DNA of 64,000 nucleotides from an uncultured Chloroflexia bacterium (GTDB lineage: Bacteria > Chloroflexota > Ktedonobacteria > Ktedonobacterales > Ktedonobacteraceae). The first letter of the stretch is position 1. Every line of letters starts with the position of its first letter. The stretch covers positions 2,224 through 66,223 of the forward strand of contig CAWBXD010000010.1 of NCBI GenBank assembly GCA_963792705.1. Reading direction: 5' to 3'. A program made the translations under genes and the position numbers. Below the pieces are notes generated by a model, which was not told the origin of the DNA, did no database searches, and worked only from the letters and a program-made list of their open reading frames with translations. Below are positions 16,259-36,494 of the stretch, one piece after another.

Positions 16259-18637
16259 TTACCGGCCGAATCGACGTAAGCGCAGTGAGTTGCTCACGAC
16301 AGTGACCGAAGAGAGAGCCATCGCCGTTGCCGCAAAAATCGGAGCATTCTCTCGTAGGATAGGAATTAAGGGAGAGAGAATAGCTATAGGTATCAAGACC
16401 ACGTTGTAGGCAAAGGCCCAGAAGAGATTTTGCTTGATAGTTCGTAACGTTGCACGGGAGAGAGCTAGTGCTGTCGCAATGCTCTTTAGGTTCCCTTTTA
16501 CCAATGTGATATCGGACGCTTCGATTGCCACATCGGTACCCGTTCCCATAGCAATGCCTGCATTAGCCTGCACCAGAGCGGGTGCATCGTTGATGCCATC
16601 ACCAGCAAATGCTACAATTATGCCTTGATCCTGTAAATGCTTGACCTGATTCGTCTTGTCTTCTGGTAGCACCTCTGCCAGCACATGCTCAGGTGCAATG
16701 CCAACACTGGCGGCAATAGCTTGTGCGGTACGTCGATTGTCACCTGTAACCATCCACACAACAATTCCTTGTGCGTGTAACTGCTGAATCGCTTCTACCG
16801 AACCAACTTTGACGGTATCAGCGACCGCGACCGCTCCTACAAGCTCGCCATCAAGAGCAATAAGCATCGCTGTCTTGCCTTGCTCCTCCAACGTTTTCAA
16901 TTGCTCCTCTAAAGGTGAGGAGTCGATAGAATGCTCTTGAAGCAAGGTTCGCGTCCCAATCAGGATAGCACGACCTTCTATCGTCGCTTGCAAACCACGT
17001 CCGGCGAGGGCGGCGAAGCGTTCGGGATATGCATTGACTCGTAGGCCGCGTACTTTCGCCCCTTCAACAATAGCAGTTGCGAGTGGATGCTCAGACCCCT
17101 GCTCTGCCTCTGCTGTCAAGCGTAACATTTCGTCAACTTGCGTGGAAGCAATAGCAATTACGTCCGTCAGTTCGGGCTTACCCTTCGTGATAGTACCAGT
17201 TTTATCGAGGAGAACTGCTCGCACAGCTTGAATACGTTCAAGGCTCTCACCACCCTTGATCAGAATACCTTGCTCTGCCCCTTTGCCTGTTCCAACCATG
17301 ATGGCTGTTGGCGTAGCAAGTCCAAGGGCACATGGGCAAGCAACAACTAGAACGGCAACGGCTGCCACGATTGAGCTAATCCAGGGGTTACTCGTACCCA
17401 TCATACCTGCTGAATGTATGCCAATAGCAAAGATGTTTGTAAGCATGGCCCATACAATGAAAGTCAGCGAGGCGATTACCAACACCGTTGGCACAAAGAT
17501 GCTAGAGATAGTGTCCGCGAGACGCTGAATGGGAGCCTTCGACCCTTGTGCTTGCTCAACCATTCGCACGATACTTGCCAGCACCGTATCAGCCCCTACT
17601 TTCGTTGCCTTCATATGTAGCAAACCATGTTGGTTCACGGTTGCGCCTATGAGCATGTCGCCAGCACTTTTTTCGACGGGAATGCTTTCACCAGTAATCA
17701 TCGACTCGTCAATAGAGGAGTGGCCCGAACGGACCTCGCCATCGACGGGGATTTTTTCACCTGGGCGCACGATCAGCTCATCGCCGACCTGTACCTGTTC
17801 TATCGGTAATTCGATTTCGTGTCCTGCACGAAGTACATGCGCGGTTCGAGCTTGTAGGCCCATCAATTTTTTGATCGCGTCATTTGCCTGCCCCTTAGCA
17901 CGTGCTTCCAAATACTTGCCCAGGAAGATTAGCGTCACAATGAGGGTTGTCGTATCGTAAAAAGTGGTACCACCAACAACTTTGGGAAAGAAGGTAGCGA
18001 CAACACTCAAGATATATGCTGCTGTTGAACCAAGCGAAACCAAGGTGTCCATATTCGCGCTACCATGAAGCAAGGTCTTGATCGCTCCTTTATGGAACTC
18101 CCAACCTACGACAGCCCAAACAGGCGTTGTCAAGACGAGCAGGAGAATATTTTCACCTGGAAATGCGTTCATAAAAAACATACTCAAGAGCACAACAGGG
18201 AGCGAAAGTGCTATAGCGAGAATGAGAAGATTACGCTTGCGAACCAATTCCGCGGCTTTCCGTGAGTTCCGCTCGTCCTCTTGTTGAGTACTGATGGAGG
18301 TGAAATTGCTGACGCTGCTCTCCGTCGTTGTTGTAGTGATGGGTTGTGGTGCAGGTTGCTCTATGAGTGTTGCTTTGTACCCAACTGCCTCGACCTTCTG
18401 TAGCATCTGGTCCACACCTGTCTGTTCAGGATTGTACATGACGGTGCCACGCTCGGTCGCCAAGTTGACTTGAGCATCCAGGATGCCGGGGACCTTTTTA
18501 AGTCCCTTTTCGATACGCATGGCACAGGAGGCACATGTCATCCCTTCAAGGGCAAGCGTTGCTTGACTTGCAGCACTGGCCTGATCGTGTGCGCCCTCTT
18601 GCACGGTCTCGTTTGTGCTGTTTGTTTCTATCGTCAT
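16259..18637 (-). CDS. copA: copper-translocating P1B-type ATPase
   Basis: N-terminal HMA motif [14 protein letters not shown]6 CPC ([12 protein letters not shown]), phosphorylation site DKTGTIT, and hinge [10 protein letters not shown]. Confidence 0.95.
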
Positions 18638-20775: not shown

Positions 20776-22071
20776 TCACCTATATACAGTACAGCCGCTC
20801 TGCTCAAGTTGTTGAAACCACTCAGGAAAGGCAGCAACTTTGTTCCACCGCACATCAACCTTTTCAAGATTGGGTAGGTCTTTCAAGCTTTCGGGAAGAG
20901 AAATGAGTTTGTTGCCCCTTAAATCAAGGTGCGTAAGATGTGTTAAGTTGCCGAACGACTCTGGTAAAGTTGTTAACCTGTTATTTCTTAGGTCGAGTCG
21001 TGTAAGTTGCGTCATGTTTCCAAATGACTCTGGTAACACAACCAATTGGTTATTCATTAGATATAATTCTTGAAGATGAGTTAGGTTCCCTATTGACTTG
21101 GGGAGTGAGACTAGTTGGTTATTCATACCATGCAATTCCTGCAAATTTTTCAGATTGCCAAGCGAATCTGGCAACGTGGTCAATACGTTATTGTATATCC
21201 TTAGTTCTTTTAGATGTGTAAGGTCGCCAATATGTTCAGGAAGTGCAGTCAAGGCATTGTCAGTGCTATTGAGGTAGCGAAGGTTGCTCAAATGTGTTAG
21301 CAATTCGGGAAGAGAAGTCAAAGAATTGTTGCTGAGATACAGAAAAAATGTAAGATTTTTTAGCATTCCAAGAGACGCTGGCAACACCTTGAATGCATTA
21401 TGACCTATATCAAGCGTATAGAGTTGGGAGAGGTTGCCAATCCGCTCCGACAAAAATGACAACTGATTTTCACTAATGTTGAGGCATTCAAGACTCTTTA
21501 TTTCCCATAATGTTTCGGGTAGTGAGGTGAGTTGATTTTTGCCTACGCTTACATTTGTGAGATGCGTTAATTGACTCATACGTGTGGGAAGCGAAGCAAG
21601 TTTGTTGCCGTAAACATGCAAATTTTTGAGGTTTGTAAGTCGCTGAATGCTTTCAGGAAGTGATATTAGTTGGTTCTTATCGACATGTAGTTCCTCAAGC
21701 TGATGCAAGTTCCCAAGTGTTTCGGGAAGTGAGGCGAGTTGATTTTCGTCCAACAGAAGCTTTTTAAGCTGATGCAAATTCTCAAGTGACTCAGGAAGCG
21801 ATTGCAGGTTGTTCCCAGTCACATCTAAAAAGCGCAGATTAGACAAGTTTCCAAGTGACGCAGGAAGAGACGTTATCGCACAATAGCGCAATGACAGTGC
21901 AACAACGCTATTGTTTTCGATAGAGGCGCCTATTGCACACTCACCTCGCTCAATTATTTCCTTTGTCACAAAGGGAAGAGCTTCCTCGTCATACAAAGAC
22001 TTGTTCGCTTGAAGAATTTCCTCTATTGCTTTGAGTGCGTTTCTTTCAGGAATGGAGATATTGTTTTGCAT
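20776..22071 (-). CDS. leucine-rich repeat (LRR) protein, about 15 tandem 23-aa repeats
   Basis: Repeated LxxLPESLGNLxxLxxLxLxxNQLxS units run through most of the protein. ATG at 22071 (MQNNISIPE); the track start at 22086 is TTG. Confidence 0.85.
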   Translation of the reverse strand: MQNNISIPERNALKAIEEILQANKSLYDEEALPFVTKEIIERGECAIGASIENNSVVALSLRYCAITSLPASLGNLSNLRFLDVTGNNLQSLPESLENLHQLKKLLLDENQLASLPETLGNLHQLEELHVDKNQLISLPESIQRLTNLKNLHVYGNKLASLPTRMSQLTHLTNVSVGKNQLTSLPETLWEIKSLECLNISENQLSFLSERIGNLSQLYTLDIGHNAFKVLPASLGMLKNLTFFLYLSNNSLTSLPELLTHLSNLRYLNSTDNALTALPEHIGDLTHLKELRIYNNVLTTLPDSLGNLKNLQELHGMNNQLVSLPKSIGNLTHLQELYLMNNQLVVLPESFGNMTQLTRLDLRNNRLTTLPESFGNLTHLTHLDLRGNKLISLPESLKDLPNLEKVDVRWNKVAAFPEWFQQLEQSGCTVYR

Positions 22072-22106
22072 ATCATAACGTTTCAACTTAGCTTACAAAA
22101 GATTTT

Positions 22107-24109: not shown

Positions 24110-24259
24110 CTTGAAAGAAACGTTCTTGTGTATTCCAAAAATCATTTCTTGTATGTAAGAATGTACACAGATTTCCCTCGTAGCGCAAAACGATACAGCA
24201 GGTTTTTCCATAATTGTAATAGCTTTCAATCGTGCTGCCTAGTGTTTTCAGGAGGTTCC

Positions 24260-25438
24260 ATGAGTAGCAGAGCTAGTAGCTTTGGTATTTCAGCCATTTC
24301 TCACGTCTTCAATGATAGTTCAAGTGAGTTACGGAATAAGATCATCGGTATCTACGCGTTCCTTATTGCGTTTAACGTTCTTGCCTGGGTCTTTGCATTC
24401 GCAGGTTTTAGCGTCCGATATCCTGAACTTCTCGGTACAGCGCTCTTAGCGTACACTTTCGGGTTACGTCACTCTGTCGATGCAGATCATATCTCAGCCA
24501 TCGACAACGTCACGCGTAAATTGATGCAAGAAAACAAAAAGCCTATTGGTGTCGGGTTCTTTTTCTCGCTCGGTCATTCCACGGTTGTGGTTGCATTATC
24601 TGTCGCCATTGCTATCGCGGCGACGTTCATTCAAGGAAGCCTTCCGGCTCTTAAAAACGCTGGTGGACTCATTGGAACATCCGTATCAGCACTCTTCTTG
24701 TTTGTCATCGCGCTCATCAATGGCCTTGTTCTCTGGGAGATTTTCCAGACCTTTCAGAAGGTAAGACGCGGAGAGGAATACAGCGAGCAGACACTTGATG
24801 AGTTTTTAAACCAGCGTGGCATCATGGGTCGTTTTTTCCGCCCTTTGTTGCGTATGGTGGATGCGAGTTGGAAGATGTATCCTGTGGGCGTTCTGTTTGG
24901 ACTTGGTTTTGATACTGCGACTGAGGTAGGATTGTTAGGGATTGCAGCTACAGCCGCTGGCAAGGGAATGCCTGTCCTCTTCATCCTTATCTTTCCAATG
25001 CTCTTTACGGCTGGTATGTGCTTGCTTGACACAACGGATGGTATCCTAATGCTTGGTGCATATGGGTGGGCTTTTGTGAAACCTGTACGCAAACTGTACT
25101 ACAACTTAAATATCACGCTTGTGTCGGTGTTAGTAGCTGTGGTAGTTGGTACGATTGAGGTTCTGAGCATCATTGCAATGGAGTTTCACCTGAGTGGTGG
25201 TTTATGGGACCCATTGGTCAATCTCGACTTTGGTGTTTTGGGTGGCATCATTATTGGTCTCTTCCTTCTTAGTTGGGTTATATCGACCATCATCTATAAG
25301 GTGAAGCGATATGATGATCTTGAAGTGAAGACAGCACAACCGCTTTCCACGCCCTCAAAAGTAATAAGCGAGACAAAGAGCAGTTCTGTTGCATCAGCTT
25401 CATTAAAGGATACAACAAGAAGCAGCATTCGCTCTTAG
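24260..25438 (+). CDS. NiCoT-family (HoxN/HupN/NixA) nickel/cobalt permease
   Basis: Signature LRHSVDADHISAIDNVTRK in TM2, FFFSLGHSTVV, and GLGFDTATEV. GGAGG lies 5 nt before ATG 24260. The 44-codon N-terminal extension from GTG 24128 looks non-coding. Confidence 0.88.
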   Translation: MSSRASSFGISAISHVFNDSSSELRNKIIGIYAFLIAFNVLAWVFAFAGFSVRYPELLGTALLAYTFGLRHSVDADHISAIDNVTRKLMQENKKPIGVGFFFSLGHSTVVVALSVAIAIAATFIQGSLPALKNAGGLIGTSVSALFLFVIALINGLVLWEIFQTFQKVRRGEEYSEQTLDEFLNQRGIMGRFFRPLLRMVDASWKMYPVGVLFGLGFDTATEVGLLGIAATAAGKGMPVLFILIFPMLFTAGMCLLDTTDGILMLGAYGWAFVKPVRKLYYNLNITLVSVLVAVVVGTIEVLSIIAMEFHLSGGLWDPLVNLDFGVLGGIIIGLFLLSWVISTIIYKVKRYDDLEVKTAQPLSTPSKVISETKSSSVASASLKDTTRSSIRS

Positions 25439-26278: not shown

Positions 26279-28678
26279 ATGAGGATTTATAATACCTTGA
26301 CACGGCAGATAGAAGAGATTGTGCCTATGGAGGATGGGAAGATCAAGATGTATTCTTGTGGCCCCACCGTCTATCGCTATATCCACATTGGCAACTTGCG
26401 AACCTTTGTCATGGCAGACTGGGTGCGAAGAGCCTTTGAGTATCGAGGGGTTGAAGTCCTGCATGTAAAAAATATTACCGACGTGGGACATATGCGACGC
26501 GAAGTCGTAGACCAAGGCGAAGATAAGGTTGAGGCACAGGCACGTAAAGAGGGAAAGTCATCTCTTGAGATTGCACAATTCTATACCGACGCCTTCCATG
26601 AAGATGAAACGTTACTGAACATCCTGCCAGCACACGTTTTTCCACGCGCAACACAGCACGTCCCCGAAATGATTAAGATTATTCAAGGGTTAGTGGCAAA
26701 AGAAATTGCCTATGAGGTCAACGGGAATGTGTACTTCGATATCAAACGCTTTCCTGACTATGGCAAGCTTTCTGGCAACCTGCTCGAACATATGATGGCG
26801 GGAGTACACGAGGGCGTTGATGCAGACCGACACAACCCTGAAGATTTTCCCTTGTGGAAGGTTGCCGAACCTGGACGCGAAATGGCGTGGGAAAGTCCGT
26901 GGGGACGCGGCTTTCCTGGCTGGCACATCGAGTGTACAGCAATGTCGATGAAGTATCTTGGTACACATTTTGACCTGCACACGGGCGGCGTTGACAACAT
27001 TTTCCCACATCACGAAGATGAAATCGCACAAAGTGAAGGCTTTTCGGGTGAGCAGTTTGTCAACTACTGGCTCCATGCACAGCATCTGCTCGCCGATGGG
27101 CAAAAGATGGCAAAGTCTACCGGCAATGCATATACACGGGCAGAGGTGGCGTCGCGTGGCTTTGAACCAATGGCCTTGCGCTATTTTTATACAACAGCAC
27201 TCTACCGTAGTCGTCTCAACTTTACCTTTCGAGCCTTGCAAGCAGCCCAAACTTCTTTAGAACGACTCAGAGACTTAGCATACCGTCTACTGTTGCAAGG
27301 AGACGAAAAAGCCATCTTTTCTGATGAACCGATGCTGGAGGATGAGGGAAGGCAGTGGAGAGCGACCTTTCTTGCCGAAGTTGAGAACGATTTGAATATG
27401 CCTCGTGCGATGGCGGTTGTCTGGGCGATGCTACGTTCAGCAGAAAACGCAACGACGAAACTGCGTGTACTCTTCGACATGGATTGTATTCTTGGCTTTG
27501 GGCTTAAAGCATACCTTGCAAGTGATCAACCTCAACATAGAATTGAACCTGCCGCCTATCTAGCAGCCGTACCATCGCCAGTGGCCGCTCAAGTACAGAC
27601 ACGCGCAACCTTAAGAACACAACAAAGTTACCAGCAAGCTGATACTCTACGTCAGCAATTGAGTCAAGAGGGCTATCTGGTACGGGATACAGAGCGAGGT
27701 ACACTCGTTGCACCACGTCGCCTGGATGAAGAGTTTTCGGTTCTCGCCCGTTCTACCGATGCTCCCGATATGACACAAAAGTCGGACCTCTTCGAATTTT
27801 CGGTGAACCTATTAGCGCATAACAGCAAAGATGATGTAGCACGCTGTATAGAGAGTGTGCGACGTTCGGTTGGAAAGCACACGATAGAGATCGTTGTGAT
27901 CGACAATGGGTCAACAGACGAAACGCTGCCCTATCTACAACAGCTTGCGCGTCAAGGAGATTTGACGGGGGAAGATGGGCAACGCATTGGTCTACACGTG
28001 CTCTTCGCAGACCACAACATGGGTTTTGCAGCGGGTCGTAATGCAACGATGCGTGTGAGTTGTGGACATTTTATTGTGCTGATGGATACCTCTATCGAGG
28101 TCAAAGGGGATATCTGGACACCATTAGCAACCACGCTAGCAGACCCGTTAGTAGGTGTGGTGGGACCTTATGGTTTGGTGACAGAAGACCTGCGTGACTT
28201 TCATGAGTCTGTAGGACCACAGGTTGACGCGGTTGAAGGCTATCTCATGGCCTTCCGTCGTACACTTCTATCAGAGGTAGGGTGGATTGATGAGAAATTT
28301 CGTTTTTACCGTTTGATGGACATTTTCTATAGTTTCTTTTTCAAGGCAGCAGGCTATCGTGCTATGACGGTTTCACCCGTGGTAGAGCTGATCGAGAAGC
28401 ATCCACACCGTGAATGGTATAGTCTCAGTGAGGACGAACAGCGTACAAAAAGCAAGAAAAACTATGATATCTTCCGTGATCGCTGGCATCACGGCGAAAG
28501 CCTTCTTGTGAAAAACTATAATCCAGAGCATTTGTGGCCCAGTCACAATCACCCCTTGCATCTTCAAGGGACCCATACGCATACACCGGATGAACTTCCA
28601 GCTCCTGGTACGATGCATAGTCATTCGCATCAGCATTGGCCCGATCATTCGCATGAACATCTTCATGTACATGAATAG
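26279..28678 (+). CDS. cysS: cysteine--tRNA ligase fused to a GT2 glycosyltransferase domain and a His-rich tail
   Basis: CysRS: MYSCGPTVYRYIHIGNLRT (HIGH), WHIEC, FPHHEDEIAQSE, KMAKSTGN (KMSKS), and the C-terminal ADTLRQQLSQEGYLVRDTERGT. GT2: FSVNLLAHNSKDD, VVIDNGSTDET, VLMDTS, GYLMAFRRTLLSEVGWIDEKF. Tail: THTHTPDELPAPGTMHSHSHQHWPDHSHEHLHVHE. Confidence 0.85.
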   Translation: MRIYNTLTRQIEEIVPMEDGKIKMYSCGPTVYRYIHIGNLRTFVMADWVRRAFEYRGVEVLHVKNITDVGHMRREVVDQGEDKVEAQARKEGKSSLEIAQFYTDAFHEDETLLNILPAHVFPRATQHVPEMIKIIQGLVAKEIAYEVNGNVYFDIKRFPDYGKLSGNLLEHMMAGVHEGVDADRHNPEDFPLWKVAEPGREMAWESPWGRGFPGWHIECTAMSMKYLGTHFDLHTGGVDNIFPHHEDEIAQSEGFSGEQFVNYWLHAQHLLADGQKMAKSTGNAYTRAEVASRGFEPMALRYFYTTALYRSRLNFTFRALQAAQTSLERLRDLAYRLLLQGDEKAIFSDEPMLEDEGRQWRATFLAEVENDLNMPRAMAVVWAMLRSAENATTKLRVLFDMDCILGFGLKAYLASDQPQHRIEPAAYLAAVPSPVAAQVQTRATLRTQQSYQQADTLRQQLSQEGYLVRDTERGTLVAPRRLDEEFSVLARSTDAPDMTQKSDLFEFSVNLLAHNSKDDVARCIESVRRSVGKHTIEIVVIDNGSTDETLPYLQQLARQGDLTGEDGQRIGLHVLFADHNMGFAAGRNATMRVSCGHFIVLMDTSIEVKGDIWTPLATTLADPLVGVVGPYGLVTEDLRDFHESVGPQVDAVEGYLMAFRRTLLSEVGWIDEKFRFYRLMDIFYSFFFKAAGYRAMTVSPVVELIEKHPHREWYSLSEDEQRTKSKKNYDIFRDRWHHGESLLVKNYNPEHLWPSHNHPLHLQGTHTHTPDELPAPGTMHSHSHQHWPDHSHEHLHVHE

Positions 28679-31189: not shown

Positions 31190-31195
31190 ATGAGC

Positions 31196-31603
31196 ATGCA
31201 CTCAGATACACATAAAAAACAGAAAGATGTACCCTCTGCTCTGACGCCAATCGATCCTGATGGTGTCGCAGAACTTCAGGCATCAGCTCCATCAGACGAA
31301 CTGATTGCGGTTGTAACGGGCACATTTCAAGCACTCGGCGACCCAACACGGCTGAAAATATTGTACGCGTTAGTGAAGCGTTCCTGCTGTGTGCGTGATT
31401 TAGCAATCCTAGTAGGTGTTTCGGAGTCGGCTGTATCGCATCAACTCAGATTTTTAAAGGATCGGCGGCTGGTAAAACAACGACGCGAGGGAACAACTAT
31501 TTACTATTCTTTGGATGATAGCCACTTAGAGGTACTCTTTAGGGAGGCAGAAAATCACGCGGACCATGTGTATTATGGTCTTCCCGATCATCCTAACGCC
31601 TAA
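31196..31603 (+). CDS. ArsR/SmtB-family metal-sensing repressor (probably translated from a leaderless mRNA)
   Basis: LGDPTRLKILYALVKRSCCVRDLAILVGVSESAVSHQLRFLKDRRLV is the canonical ArsR wHTH with a Cys pair. The ORF could also begin at ATG 31190. Confidence 0.88.
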   Translation: MHSDTHKKQKDVPSALTPIDPDGVAELQASAPSDELIAVVTGTFQALGDPTRLKILYALVKRSCCVRDLAILVGVSESAVSHQLRFLKDRRLVKQRREGTTIYYSLDDSHLEVLFREAENHADHVYYGLPDHPNA

Positions 31604-31733
31604 AGAAAGGCGAACGCGACTCGCTTAATGAGTCGCATATTTATTCGATATCTATCTGAGCGGGTGAGCATATACACAGCTACATAGATTGTACATAATG
31701 AATTGTTACGAACAGAAAGGCAAAGGAAACACG

Positions 31734-32537
31734 ATGCATACACCATCACTCTTATTACTCTTGGGAGCTGCGGCGGCTGTTGCAATATTACATTCCATTC
31801 TTCCCGATCACTGGGTGCCTCTTGCAGTGGTTGCACGCACACAACGCTGGGGTTTACTGCGTGTTACGCGTGTAAGTGCGCTAGCATCAGTTGGGCATGT
31901 TATCACCTCTTTGGTGCTGGGAGGAATTGTCGCCCTTATTGGACTACAATTTCAGCGTCAACTCGATACACAACAAGGACATATCATTGGTGGCATCCTC
32001 ATCCTTACAGGTTTTGGTTTTCTGGTTTGGGGACTCATTGGTGGAGGACATGGGCATAGTCATACAGGGGAAGGACATACCCATGCTCATGGTGTAGAGC
32101 ACGAATATGGACATGTTGATGAACATGAGCACGGGGAACACAGTCATGACGCAGAGCATGAGCATCATCATACAGAAGAGCACGAGCATGCTCATGAGGA
32201 ACACGCACACGAGTCTGCACAAGCTAGCAAGAAGCCTATCAAACAGCAAACGCTTGCTGGCAAACTTGCAACAATTGCGGTTCCCTTTGGTATTGCAGCT
32301 TCGCCTGATTTAACGATTTTGCCTGTGGCATTGGGAGCAAGTGCTCTTGGAGGAGGCGCGGTTGTTGGCGTATTGGGAGTTTTCGCTGCTTTGACTATCG
32401 GTACCTTTATTGGTCTCACTGTACTTGCCACGCTTATTGGGTATCAAGTCAAAGGGGCATGGTTAGAAAACAATGCAAATACCATCACATCTCTTGTTCT
32501 CGTTGCGATTGGTGTTGTGGCATTTGTTGGCTTTTAG
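31734..32537 (+). CDS. His-rich-loop metal transporter, RcnA/NicO-like (putative Ni/Co efflux)
   Basis: TM1 motif LHSILPDHWVP, six hydrophobic segments, and a central loop GGGHGHSHTGEGHTHAHGVEHEYGHVDEHEHGEHSHDAEHEHHHTEEHEHAHEEHAHE. It lies immediately downstream of the ArsR gene. Confidence 0.55.
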   Translation: MHTPSLLLLLGAAAAVAILHSILPDHWVPLAVVARTQRWGLLRVTRVSALASVGHVITSLVLGGIVALIGLQFQRQLDTQQGHIIGGILILTGFGFLVWGLIGGGHGHSHTGEGHTHAHGVEHEYGHVDEHEHGEHSHDAEHEHHHTEEHEHAHEEHAHESAQASKKPIKQQTLAGKLATIAVPFGIAASPDLTILPVALGASALGGGAVVGVLGVFAALTIGTFIGLTVLATLIGYQVKGAWLENNANTITSLVLVAIGVVAFVGF

Positions 32538-32667
32538 AAAGTGTATGTTCTACATCTCTCCTGATGATACATTGAAGAAACCTTGATACTTCCTTGACGT
32601 TGTACGACTATACTTCCCGTACAGTGTAGCTCGTACACTGCAATACGAAAGGAAATGCAAGGAACGT

Positions 32668-33156
32668 ATGGCACAACATCGAGGATATCTTTTAGGACGA
32701 CTCTTCGCCCTTCTCGCAGCACAGGAGGCATTAGAAAGCTCTCCTGAACACCTGTATCAAGTGGTATCGACCACTCCCCCACAAGTAATGCCCAAAGCTC
32801 TTGCGAGGATGATTGAGGCAGGCAAGGAAGAAATGCTTTTTCCTCTTATGCAGCAACTTCCGCTTGATGCTTTTGACAGCGCACTCAACAGGCGCGAACA
32901 GGGTGCATTCGCGCTAGGGTATATGCATGAACGCTCTGGCTATTCCGCGCCTCTTATAGAGGAAGAGCGAGATAACGATGAACCGGATTTGACGGAACGC
33001 TACGAATTTCGTCTTGACCCTCAGTTAAAAGAATGGCTTAAAACAAGGGGCGGTGGTGGGTTCATTCGTACACTTCTACGCGCAGAACGTACAGCTATGG
33101 TGCAAGATACAACATTCAAGCAACTCTCAGGGGGAGACGAAGAATATGCATCATAA
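32668..33156 (+). CDS. solitary Cas11 / Cas8c-C-terminal-like helical protein with a possible RHH-like C-terminal extension
   Basis: [17 protein letters not shown] ... [12 protein letters not shown] ... [27 protein letters not shown] mirrors the conserved pattern of Cas8c/Csd1 C-termini (LGRLFAvLE..Q ... aSaTP..vFp ... FP..LsleeQG.F.LGYYHQR). The tail [29 protein letters not shown] follows. Confidence 0.45.
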
Positions 33157-34573
33157 TGGACAAAGGGGAACACTGCGCCTCACTCAGTATACAAGCGTTC
33201 TTATGCTGTGTTTATTAACAGCCACCACACTTGCGGCTTGCTCATCCGGCTCAAAAACTGCAACAACGACCACGAATAGCACTGCTGGTATTCATAAGAT
33301 ACAGCATGTTGTGGTGATTATGCAGGAAAACCGTTCCTTCAATTCCTATTTTGGGACCTATCCCGGTGCTGATGGCATTCCCATGCAAAACGGTGTTCCT
33401 ACCGTTTGCGTCAACGACCCCAAGACAGGAACGTGCGTCAAACCTTTCCACGACTCCAACAATAAAAACGGTGGTGGTCCTCATAACGAAACGGCTGCTA
33501 CCGCCGATATCAACGGTGGCAAAATGGATGGTTTTATTGCTCAAGCAGAGAAGGGCAAAAAAGGATGTGTTGACCCAACCAACCCAAATTGTAGCAACTC
33601 GACAACACCTGATGTAATGGGTTATCATGATGCCCGTGAAATTCCTAATTATTGGACATATGCGAAAGACTTTGTGCTACAAGACCATATGTTTGAGCCG
33701 AATGCCTCGTGGAGTTTGCCTTCACACCTGTTTATGGTTTCGGCATGGTCCGCGAAATGCACGCAGCAAGGCGATCCTGCAAGCTGTACGAATGCTCTCG
33801 ACGGTGCAAGCGGCACCAAAGGCGTACAGAAAAATGATTATGCGTGGACTGATTTGACGTACTTGCTGTACAAGCAGAAGGTAAGTTGGGCATACTATCT
33901 CGATCAGGGTAGTGAGCCAGACTGTGAAGACGATCAGATGACATGCACACAGCATGCACAAAAGGTCAAGGTACCTGGCATCTGGAATCCGCTTCCACAG
34001 TTTGACACGGTGAAAAATGACGGACAGCTTAGCAATATTCAAGACATCTCGAATTTTGCGACGGCGGCCAAGCAGGGCAAGCTTCCGGCTGTCTCATGGG
34101 TTGTTCCAAACGGAACGGATAGCGAGCATCCACCTGCACTCATCAGTACAGGCCAATCTTATGTAACCTCACTTATTAACTCGATTATGCAAGGACCCGA
34201 CTGGAATAGCACTTCTATCTTCCTTTCCTGGGATGACTGGGGTGGCTTCTACGATCATGTTACACCACCCAATGTGGACGAAAACGGCTATGGCTTACGC
34301 GTGCCAGGACTGGTTATCAGCCCTTATGCAAAGCAAGGGTCGATTGACCATCAGACACTCAGCTTTGATGCCTATCTCAAGTTCATCGAAGACGACTTCT
34401 TGAATAGTGTGCGTCTCGACCCTAAGACGGATGGGCGACCTGATCCACGTCCAGACGTGCGTGAGAATGCTTCAATCTTAGGTAATTTAGTCAACGATTT
34501 TGACTTCAATCAGTCGCCACGTAGTCCAGTGCCATTACCGATCAATCCAGCACCGGGACCGGCCTCTACCTAG
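33146..34573 (+). CDS. phosphoesterase-family lipoprotein (phospholipase C / AcpA acid phosphatase type)
   Basis: Lipobox [10 protein letters not shown]. Family signature [26 protein letters not shown], later [13 protein letters not shown] and [13 protein letters not shown] 33146 with GGGGGAG upstream overlaps the previous ORF by 11 nt. Confidence 0.85.
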
Positions 34574-35954: not shown

Positions 35955-36494
35955 ATGCATATTCTAGCCATTTCTGGAAGCTTACGCGCGAGTTCGACTA
36001 ATACAACTCTTGTTCGTGCGGCAATAAAGTTAGCACCTGAAGGCATGCAGTTTACTCTGTATGATGGCTTAGGAGAACTGCCGCATTTTAGTCCCGACAT
36101 TGATGGCAGTGATGTTCCTACATCAATTACAACACTACGTAGCCAGCTACAAGCTGCTGACGGTGTACTCATCTGTACGCCAGAGTACGCCTATGGAGTA
36201 CCAGGTTCATTAAAGAATGCACTCGATTGGACGGTCTCATCGGGTGAGTTTGTGGGCAAGCCCGTTGTGGTCATCAGTGCCTCACCATCCTCTTTGGGTG
36301 GTGACAAAGCTCATGCATCACTATTGCTAACACTAACGGCATTGTCGGCGGAAATCGTCGAAGGGGGAACGCTCATCATTCCGCTCATTCGCACGAAACT
36401 CAGTGCTGATGGCAGTGTGTCAGACCCGGCAACAGCACAAGCACTTCGCTCAGTTCTTGATGCACTTCAAAAAGCTATAAGTGCGAAGGTGTAA
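35955..36494 (+). CDS. NADPH-dependent FMN reductase
   Basis: MHILAISGSLRASSTNTTLVRAA and ADGVLICTPEYAYGVPGSLKNALDW match the family motifs. Confidence 0.85.
   Translation: MHILAISGSLRASSTNTTLVRAAIKLAPEGMQFTLYDGLGELPHFSPDIDGSDVPTSITTLRSQLQAADGVLICTPEYAYGVPGSLKNALDWTVSSGEFVGKPVVVISASPSSLGGDKAHASLLLTLTALSAEIVEGGTLIIPLIRTKLSADGSVSDPATAQALRSVLDALQKAISAKV

Follow-up and report, generated by a model that had tools for sequence, protein, structure and literature searches.

The 64-kb stretch of Ktedonobacteraceae DNA analysed here (contig CAWBXD010000010.1; the whole stretch is referred to as the window, and coordinates are window-based) carries on its forward strand, at 32668–33156 including the stop codon, a gene for a two-domain protein of 162 amino acids, in which a helical bundle related to Cas11c, the small subunit of type I-C CRISPR-Cas effector complexes, is followed by an acidic linker and a predicted DNA-binding module resembling the ribbon-helix-helix (RHH) type. 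The general view is that Cas11 small subunits occur only as obligate components of CRISPR effector complexes. A previous reading of this DNA, made from its letters alone (the sequence-only reading), had described the open reading frame (ORF) as a solitary Cas11-like protein, and the ORF is found as described, with an ATG start and AAGGAA upstream of it. An ORF check, protein clusters, an alignment and dN/dS values indicate an independent gene with a promoter-like region of its own, before which lies a gene for a ZIP-like transporter. The reported absence of CRISPR-Cas from the 64 kb was also borne out, as TRF and direct-repeat searches of the window returned no CRISPR-like array and no cas gene was detected among the 40 ORFs scanned with Pfam, out of 44 of at least 200 codons.

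Two domains of the encoded protein

The N-terminal domain (residues 3–92; 32674–32943, forward strand) was delimited by Pfam, PDB profile, AF2 and Foldseek analyses. Residues 3–90 align with positions 451–556 of the 559 in the Pfam model Cas_Csd1 (PF09709; E = 1.2e-9, 37.9 bits, for a gathering cut-off of 27), and the same region also matches TIGR01863 and four PADLOC models of Cas8c, the TIGR01863 score of 29.3 bits being far below the whole-protein cut-off of 218.65. A profile of the family matches in the PDB the solved Cas11c chains 8g9s_H (E = 4e-7) and 7kha_K (E = 3e-6), and, in the Cas8c chains of the same structures, the C-terminal domains; it has no other notable match. The AF2 model contains five helices, with pLDDT values of 90–96 over residues 10–90, and a Foldseek search of the PDB gives Cas11c or Cas8c chains for each of the best five matches, four of them at a probability of 0.99–1.0 (best TM score 0.57, normalised by target length, for 9jhb_B at probability 1.0). 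When full-length Cas8c queries were used in tblastn, they aligned over their C-terminal domain only, at 33–37% identity and with E values down to 3e-10; likewise, the full-length Cas8c proteins retrieved by an exhaustive profile search align solely through that domain. The family alignment shows no variation in two signature motifs, GYxLGRL and EQGxFxLGYxH. Since the profile, PDB, Foldseek and tblastn matches are specific to Cas8c and Cas11c, the homology is real and not convergent: the domain descends from the C-terminal, or Cas11c small-subunit, domain of Cas8c, and the likeness to Cas8c/Csd1 that the sequence-only reading had perceived in the first hundred or so residues was correctly seen.

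Cas11c is normally a separate polypeptide that arises from an internal start within cas8c (PMC7684278). The window protein shares with Cas11c (7kha_K, 8g9s_H) the homologous bundle and both signature motifs, and differs from it in having its own gene and promoter behind the transporter gene, with no internal initiation within a cas8c frame, in a domain about 15 residues shorter, in the extra predicted DNA-binding module, and in lying next to a phosphoesterase gene, with which it is predicted to be co-transcribed, and never beside cas genes or CRISPR arrays. The window holds neither a full-length Cas8c/Csd1 large subunit (about 550–650 amino acids, with an N-terminal part for PAM recognition and for binding Cas5 and Cas7) nor a cas operon with an adjoining array. 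Five full-length Cas8c queries, run against the window and 13 related genome loci in search of cas8c remnants, matched through the C-terminal domain only: the N-terminal part of Cas8c had no counterpart in the window by tblastn (all other hits had E > 0.3) or within 10 kb of the gene in the 13 loci, and no cas domains occur among the neighbours of the orthologue in Dictyobacter alpinus. The profile search also returned two long proteins, P0111 (1003 amino acids) and P0150 (858 amino acids), in which a full-length Cas8c is followed by two or three more tandem copies of the Cas11c-like domain, that is, by what their sequences suggest are small subunits joined covalently to the large one.

The two domains are separated by an acidic linker of low model confidence (residues 93–107; 32944–32988, forward strand; pLDDT below 50 at residues 97–110), whose length and sequence vary in the alignment. 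The RHH-like module that follows (residues 108–142; 32989–33093, forward strand) comprises an extended segment, RYEFRLD, then a helix, a turn and a second helix, and its motif L-T-E-R-Y-E-F-R-x-D-P-x-L-K-E-W-I-K-x-x-G-G-G-x-F-x-R-x-L-L-R is nearly invariant, with 11 invariant columns. Modelled alone with AF2 (pLDDT 82), the module is extended over positions 1–15, which include RYEFRLD, and forms helices at 16–25 and 28–43 with a two-residue turn between them. In RHH proteins the strand of a monomer forms only in the dimer, and the modelled topology is that of an RHH monomer. From profile and fold tests alone, the RHH assignment would be a reasonable guess: the best compact Foldseek match of the isolated module is the RHH antitoxin ParD2 (7b22_A), which is not significant (E = 9.8), and the hhalign comparisons with a hand-typed set that includes Arc, Mnt, CopG, NikR, ParD and omega (P = 3e-4, probability 39%) and with the RHH tails of relatives (P = 5e-4, probability 31%) are weak, both aligning in the expected register of strand, helix A, turn and helix B.

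Promoter, operon and relatives

The putative -10 hexamer of the gene, TATACT (32609–32614, forward strand), has a counterpart in every orthologue, reading TATAAT, TATAGT or TATACT, and keeps a fixed distance to a series of GTAC sites, which flank and follow it in a putative operator region at 32600–32647. The sub-sites in this region, all read on the forward strand, are TTGTACGAC just upstream of the -10 (GTAC at 32602–32605), CGTACA at 32618–32623 (GTAC at 32619–32622) and the degenerate palindrome CGTACA-CTGC-AATACG at 32632–32647 (GTAC at 32633–32636). Repeats had already been remarked upon at 32601–32640, and they are real and conserved in orthologues. Within 90 bp upstream of the gene, two to four copies of GTAC lie at 12/12 distinct orthologue loci of Ktedonobacteria, whatever gene lies downstream (the window plus L002–L012, L013 being excluded as a duplicate of the L005 promoter). 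The sites are copies of CGTACA/TGTACG that flank and follow a -10-like hexamer, and the intergenic DNA around them has otherwise diverged. The 16-bp palindrome CGTACA-N4-TGTACG, with 0–1 mismatch, is present at ten of the twelve promoters and nowhere else in the 406 kb searched, in which no further copies of the operator, as expected of a regulon, were found outside the promoters of the family itself. The density of GTAC reaches 37.5 per kb in 20 promoters of the family versus 2.9 per kb elsewhere in the loci, a 12.7-fold enrichment whose Poisson P of 3e-49 overstates the independence of related loci. GTAC is twofold symmetric, and its centres are 10 bp apart in the palindromic operators and 13–17 bp apart elsewhere; this spacing, together with the overlap with the transcription start, would suit RHH dimers on one face of the helix, which is the classical geometry of autorepression. 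The sole other operator-like cluster of the window, four GTAC spaced by 10, 10 and 13 bp at 36165–36201, inside a gene for an FMN reductase, is probably due to chance.

Downstream, the gene overlaps by 11 nt, as the sequence-only reading had also observed, a gene for a lipoprotein phosphoesterase of the phospholipase C/AcpA family (33146–34573, forward strand; 475 amino acids; PF04185, E = 1.2e-71; lipoprotein signal LAAC), whose ATG at 33146 precedes the stop codon at 33154–33156 and follows a Shine-Dalgarno sequence, GGGGGAG, at 33130–33136. Such an arrangement suggests that both genes are most likely carried by one transcript. The two genes are adjacent in 9/13 related genome loci, including those of three Dictyobacter species, and likewise in D. 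alpinus, and the phosphoesterase is absent at L003 and in a more divergent clade (L008, L010–L012), where the two-domain gene stands alone. Regulating this enzyme therefore cannot be the general role of the family, for which the phosphoesterase would be a clade-specific cargo and not the reason to exist. The promoters differ accordingly between clades, since two direct copies of CTTGA spaced at a period of 11 bp (32582–32597 in the window, with copies at 32582–32586 and 32593–32597, forward strand; conserved in L002, L004, L005, L007 and L009) end about 10 bp before the -10 and take the place of a canonical -35 only in the clade linked to the phosphoesterase, while the clade without it has a TTGACA-17-TATAAT promoter and no CTTGA repeats. 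These repeats may be the site of an activator of the response-regulator type, and their layout could, as a speculation, be likened to that of Pho-box and other response-regulator promoters, here ahead of an enzyme of a phosphate-scavenging type.

A word-indexed protein search yielded 98 clusters of 141–170 amino acids (fragments aside) with 47–99% identity, and all the clusters with a named organism belong to Ktedonobacteria, namely metagenome-assembled genomes (MAGs) of Ktedonobacteraceae, Dictyobacter and Reticulibacter. An alignment of 32 members contains 26 invariant columns spread across both domains. Where synonymous sites are unsaturated, dN/dS amounts to 0.09–0.12 for the whole gene, about 0.1 for the N-terminal domain and 0.01–0.02 for the C-terminal module, values which indicate that both domains are maintained by purifying selection. 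IMG/VR contains no member of the Ktedonobacteria clade. A literature search for type I-C systems in Ktedonobacteria turned up only the statement that MAGs of the group carry CRISPR arrays, whose type was not given. In the genome bin MFD04580.bin.2.112 the pair of two-domain gene and phosphoesterase is duplicated in tandem (L005, 10001–15961) and occurs again on a second contig (L013) with a nearly identical promoter. In the orthologue of Dictyobacter kobayashii (L009, 10001–10440) a frameshift parts the Cas11c-like domain from the predicted DNA-binding module, and the 117-amino-acid product is annotated at NCBI as 'type I-C CRISPR-associated protein Cas8c/Csd1'; either the frameshift is an error of sequencing, or the protein is a natural solo form of the Cas11c-like domain.

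The exhaustive profile search also reached more distant two-domain proteins, 130–163 amino acids long, and proteins in which the C-terminal module stands by itself or after a different N-terminal part. All the distant two-domain relatives with a retrievable context are encoded in phage or prophage DNA: P0266 lies on a 70-kb siphovirus contig of IMG/VR between the tail genes and the early/immunity region, others on contigs of 40–70 kb with genes for integrase, excisionase-type HTH_17, Cro/CI-type helix-turn-helix (HTH) and Rad52 proteins, and the relative in a prophage of Thermosporothrix hazakensis adjoins holin, amidase and tape-measure genes. In the best-sampled phage clade (L015, L017, L020–L023) a small ORF of 73–91 codons immediately precedes the gene at all six loci, and the pair ends at a convergent block of genes in five of them. 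These upstream ORFs fall into three mutually unrelated families with no PHROG or Pfam annotation, and no known anti-CRISPR (Acr) gene adjoins the phage copies. The promoter of such cassettes reads TTGAC(A/T)-TTGTACGTACA-N6-TA(T/A)(T/A)AT-(A)(T)GTACGTACA ... TGTACGGACGAAAGG, which combines a consensus sigma-70 promoter with the GTAC motif of Ktedonobacteria; in the form TTGACA-TTGTACGTACA-...-TAnnAT-GTACGTACA...TGTACGGAC it precedes phage homologues of about 30–45% identity (L015, L017, L020–L024), and an intermediate clade (P0098) shows the same promoter and operator design. Comparison across bacteria and phages has thus shown that the putative GTAC operator accompanies the family. A relative at L025 has the strand RYEIK instead of RYEFR and ACGTAT repeats instead of ACGTAC, and the Thermosporothrix copy has the strand RHTIR and no GTAC sites; from these two sequences, a co-variation of strand and operator is possible. 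A member of the phage clade had no tblastn match in the cultured phages of INPHARED or in the plasmids of PLSDB. By analogy, the phage cassettes have the architecture of operons of acr and anti-CRISPR-associated (aca) genes, with a conserved regulator that closes a set of variable small genes and an operator in the cassette promoter. As for the window gene, a location in a mobile element is found only among its distant relatives, and its order is the opposite one, with the putative regulator first and a 475-amino-acid enzyme behind it.

The family is also modular. The Cas11c-like domain occurs alone in relatives of 93–101 amino acids found by profile search and is followed in others by a Pfam RHH_1 domain (P0126; 23.6 bits, cut-off 20.5), by HTH_17 (P0183; E = 8.5e-12), which occupies the same position as RHH_1, or, in further relatives, by other strand-helix tails. 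Two uncharacterised proteins of metagenome phages in BFVD, A0A8S5MS93 (107 amino acids) and A0A8S5LWF5 (98 amino acids), have a Cas11c-like fold (Foldseek probability 1.0, TM 0.62–0.64) and are candidates for solo viral homologues of Cas11. A constant payload with swappable DNA-binding modules is the pattern of self-regulating Acr proteins (PMC13551039).

The operator could also be followed without the protein. A scan of IMG/VR with the 17-mer TTGACWTTGTACGTACA gave 55 loci with 30 distinct sequences, mostly evident promoters and often with more GTAC after the -10, and a recognisable member of the Cas11c-like family is encoded at one of these 55 loci. Within 1.5 kb downstream of 11 of the 30 operator sites lies a small ORF with an N-terminal strand of the form R-x-E/N-x-R-hydrophobic (for instance RLEVRL, RIEIRM, RYEMRL or RLEIRL), a motif present in 13 of 1866 small ORFs in all frames, those eleven counted in. 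Ten small ORFs downstream of the operator sites were compared with Pfam, and seven of them score above the gathering threshold of an RHH-type family (RHH_1 in three cases, Arc in two and TacA1 in two). Since RHH-type genes follow these sites, the GTACGTAC operator would belong to an RHH operator class, and those proteins have their strand motif in common with the window module. Of all the lines of evidence, this one speaks most strongly for an RHH module that binds DNA. The same loci (L026–L080) reveal a widespread class of phage promoters, TTGAC(A/T)-TTGTACGTACA-N6-TATAAT-like and often followed by ATGTACAAAATGTACGTAC (for example L027, 6461–6540; L026, minus strand; L071, 8908–8990), which drives small operons encoding canonical RHH proteins with an R-x-E-x-R strand in many low-GC phages, and this class and its RHH proteins apparently form an uncharacterised pair of regulator and operator.

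Proposed autorepression and the alternatives

The explanation that probably accounts best for these data is that the gene encodes a two-domain, autorepressing regulator of the RHH type with an exapted Cas11c domain, bicistronic with the phosphoesterase and of phage-type origin. The protein would be a transcription factor made of a Cas11c-derived helical bundle and a C-terminal RHH-type module, dimers of which would bind GTAC sub-sites 10–17 bp apart that flank or follow the -10 of its own promoter, and this binding would repress the bicistronic operon of the regulator and the secreted lipoprotein phosphoesterase. Comparative sequence evidence, in which the conserved operator is decisive, gives good support to an RHH-type module and to repression by the protein of its own promoter and, through it, of the phosphoesterase operon; repeated symmetric sub-sites in the promoter of the gene itself, as RHH regulators have them, are seen in orthologues and phage relatives alike, and binding to them is predicted. 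There is moderate support for the Ktedonobacteria gene being a chromosomally fixed version of the phage-borne regulators that close acr-aca-like cassettes, because its architecture and operator are shared with those proteins, and the transfer would have run from a phage-type gene to the bacterial chromosome. The Cas11c-like domain could serve in oligomerisation, for cooperative binding of the operator, or in binding a partner such as Cascade. Arc, Mnt, CopG, omega and ParD have in common with the module the strand-helix-turn-helix layout predicted for it, the alternating basic and acidic residues of the strand and the glycine turn, as well as short symmetric sub-sites about one helical turn apart over the promoter and, presumably here too, the logic of autorepression; they differ in that the window module has a turn of GGG instead of G-x-S/T/N and stands C-terminally, behind a domain of 95 residues.

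Several observations weigh against this explanation. The sequence-only reading had proposed an RHH-like tail, of which the conserved module is real, but no significant RHH match was obtained for it in Pfam, the PDB (with two profiles), PHROGs or Foldseek; moreover, helix A lacks about one turn in comparison with Arc or CopG, and the beta strand does not form in the AF2 monomer models. The window promoter has no canonical -35 at 16–18 bp, a promoter scan finding no standard sigma-70 site in it, and its operator, with two mismatches, is less palindromic than those of most orthologues. Four of the 13 loci have no phosphoesterase after the regulator. Finally, an autoregulator as such offers no reason for the Cas11c fold to have stayed under selection.

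In a rather improbable rival, the Cas11c-like domain would still dock into type I-C Cascade as a faulty small subunit, in the manner of an Acr-Aca fusion whose RHH tail only sets its dose by autoregulation, and the chromosomal copy would be an anti-CRISPR that the host has domesticated to tune or silence its own I-C system. Such a decoy or modulator is compatible with autoregulation and differs from it in the main job of the protein. It has a precedent in AcrIB4, which has 38% identity with the final 90 residues of Cas8b and becomes part of a Cascade that is defective (Katz et al., bioRxiv 10.1101/2023.06.24.545427), and it fits the purifying selection on the N-terminal domain, the solo phage proteins with a Cas11c fold in BFVD, the position of the phage relatives at the 3′ side of small operons with at least three unrelated upstream families, between lysis or tail and immunity regions, and the occurrence of the Cas11c-like domain alone or with RHH_1, HTH_17 or the present module, as in AcrIF25. 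However, the window gene sits among housekeeping genes and not in a mobile element, is predicted to form an operon with a phosphoesterase and belongs to a clade missing from IMG/VR; a I-C system in the carrier genomes is only presumed, the domain falls some 15 residues short of Cas11c, and the neighbours of the phage copies include no known Acr. Far less probable still is a genuine Cas11c supplied in trans to an effector complex, of type I-C or related, whose genes lie at another place in the genome; the homology speaks for it, as does the fact that Cas11c is normally a separate polypeptide (PMC7684278). Such a subunit would not be expected to carry an additional conserved, predicted DNA-binding module and a conserved operator of its own, to lie away from cas genes in the 13 genome loci, the window and D. 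alpinus alike, to be co-transcribed, as predicted, with a phosphoesterase, to score 29 bits in TIGR01863 for a cut-off of 218, or to have its relatives in phages.

The sequence-only reading had left three options side by side, and the first of them, in which a Cas11-like fold was exapted as a regulator, is favoured by the operator, by selection and by the homology to Cas11c. The second, a decayed fragment of cas8c, now deserves hardly any credence: only the C-terminal part of Cas8c is represented in the gene, and one frameshifted copy (P0089) has been named 'Cas8c/Csd1' by the NCBI pipeline, but with full-length Cas8c as query no trace of the N-terminal part turned up in the window or the 13 related loci, the gene has a promoter, ribosome-binding site and ATG of its own, and its length and second domain are conserved over about 100 clusters at a dN/dS of about 0.1, so that a pseudogene is refuted by the N-terminal searches and the selection values together. 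Equally close to nil is the third, a chance or convergent resemblance without common ancestry. Small helical bundles are easily matched, and the Foldseek values are modest (E of only 0.02–0.05, TM 0.4–0.57), yet the profile matches are significant and exclusive to Cas8c and Cas11c in four independent libraries, full-length Cas8c is matched only through its C-terminal domain and the two signature motifs are invariant, which refutes chance similarity at the level of sequence statistics.

By analogy with described systems, the family of the autorepressing regulator is classed here as a variant of two known kinds, the orphan homologues of the Cas8 C-terminus, such as AcrIB4, and the RHH autoregulators of Aca type; no mention of a Cas11-RHH fusion was found in the literature searched. 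Like AcrIB4, the window protein is a stand-alone homologue of the C-terminal, Cas11-like part of a Cas8 outside CRISPR-Cas loci, and its relatives are phage-borne. Unlike AcrIB4, it derives from the Cas8c of type I-C and not from the Cas8b of type I-B, is fused to a predicted DNA-binding module and is a chromosomal copy confined to one bacterial lineage, for which an anti-CRISPR activity is only hypothetical. Neither of the two IMG/VR contigs with members of the family appears in the list of orphan viral cas genes (Table S3 of bioRxiv 10.1101/2023.06.24.545427). An RHH-type regulator, Aca14, has been described, as have Acr proteins that contain an RHH or HTH module themselves, AcrIF25 for example (NAR 2026, PMC13551039). 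The likeness to them is one of layout: a conserved regulator ends a small operon whose other genes vary, the -10 of the operon promoter is overlapped by repeats, and the DNA-binding domain, RHH or HTH, is swappable. No relationship in sequence to Aca14 was found, though no search aimed at one was made. The differences are that the operator of the family is based on GTAC, that in the window the regulator comes first with a 475-amino-acid enzyme as cargo, and that no cargo gene is a known acr.

Here a Cas11 fold is maintained by selection in a self-standing, apparently self-regulated gene across a whole bacterial class and far from cas loci. A bolder and rather improbable proposal is that the Cas11c-like domain still binds Cascade and that the whole superfamily, with its solo, RHH-fused and HTH-fused members, consists of unrecognised type I-C anti-CRISPRs that act by small-subunit mimicry and bring their own autorepressor. 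If this held, the Ktedonobacteria copy would be an endogenous brake on, or a sensor of, the Cascade of its own host, wired to the phosphoesterase operon, and the regulator with its GTAC operator would offer a guilt-by-association anchor for new anti-defence genes where the phage hosts, Chloroflexota among them, have been little studied. The relatives would then amount to a hypothetical family of anti-CRISPRs derived from Cas8c/Cas11c, the I-C counterpart of AcrIB4, and the family could be used as a marker of anti-defence cassettes in phages of scarcely studied hosts. If the Cas11c domain only oligomerises, the autorepressing regulator would still be a clear case of a Cas domain exapted into ordinary transcriptional control. 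In addition, the R-x-E-x-R strand and GTAC constitute a candidate pair of protein and operator for studies of RHH specificity.

Surrounding genes of the window

The neighbourhood of the gene is ordinary housekeeping chromosome with no mobile element, and the genes nearby encode a flavin monooxygenase, an FMN reductase, a protein like cysteinyl-tRNA synthetase, NicO, a P-type ATPase, PFK, PGM and succinyl-CoA synthetase. According to the Pfam scan, the upstream neighbours are an ArsR regulator and a ZIP-like membrane protein very rich in histidine, the latter directly upstream of the Cas11c-like gene. They are part of a clustering of metal-homeostasis genes, with a P-type ATPase with an HMA domain at 16259–18637, the NicO nickel transporter at 24128–25438 and ArsR followed by the ZIP-like protein at 31190–32537.

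The only repeat returned by the array searches of the window, three tandem units of 69 bp with 61–71% identity at 21651–21857, was considered as a CRISPR array and rejected, as its units are protein repeats inside the gene of a leucine-rich-repeat protein (20776–22086, minus strand). An unusual fusion of 799 amino acids, encoded at 26279–28678, joins the catalytic domain of a class-I cysteinyl-tRNA synthetase to a family-2 glycosyltransferase domain and is possibly linked to the biosynthesis of a thiol cofactor, in the manner of MshC.

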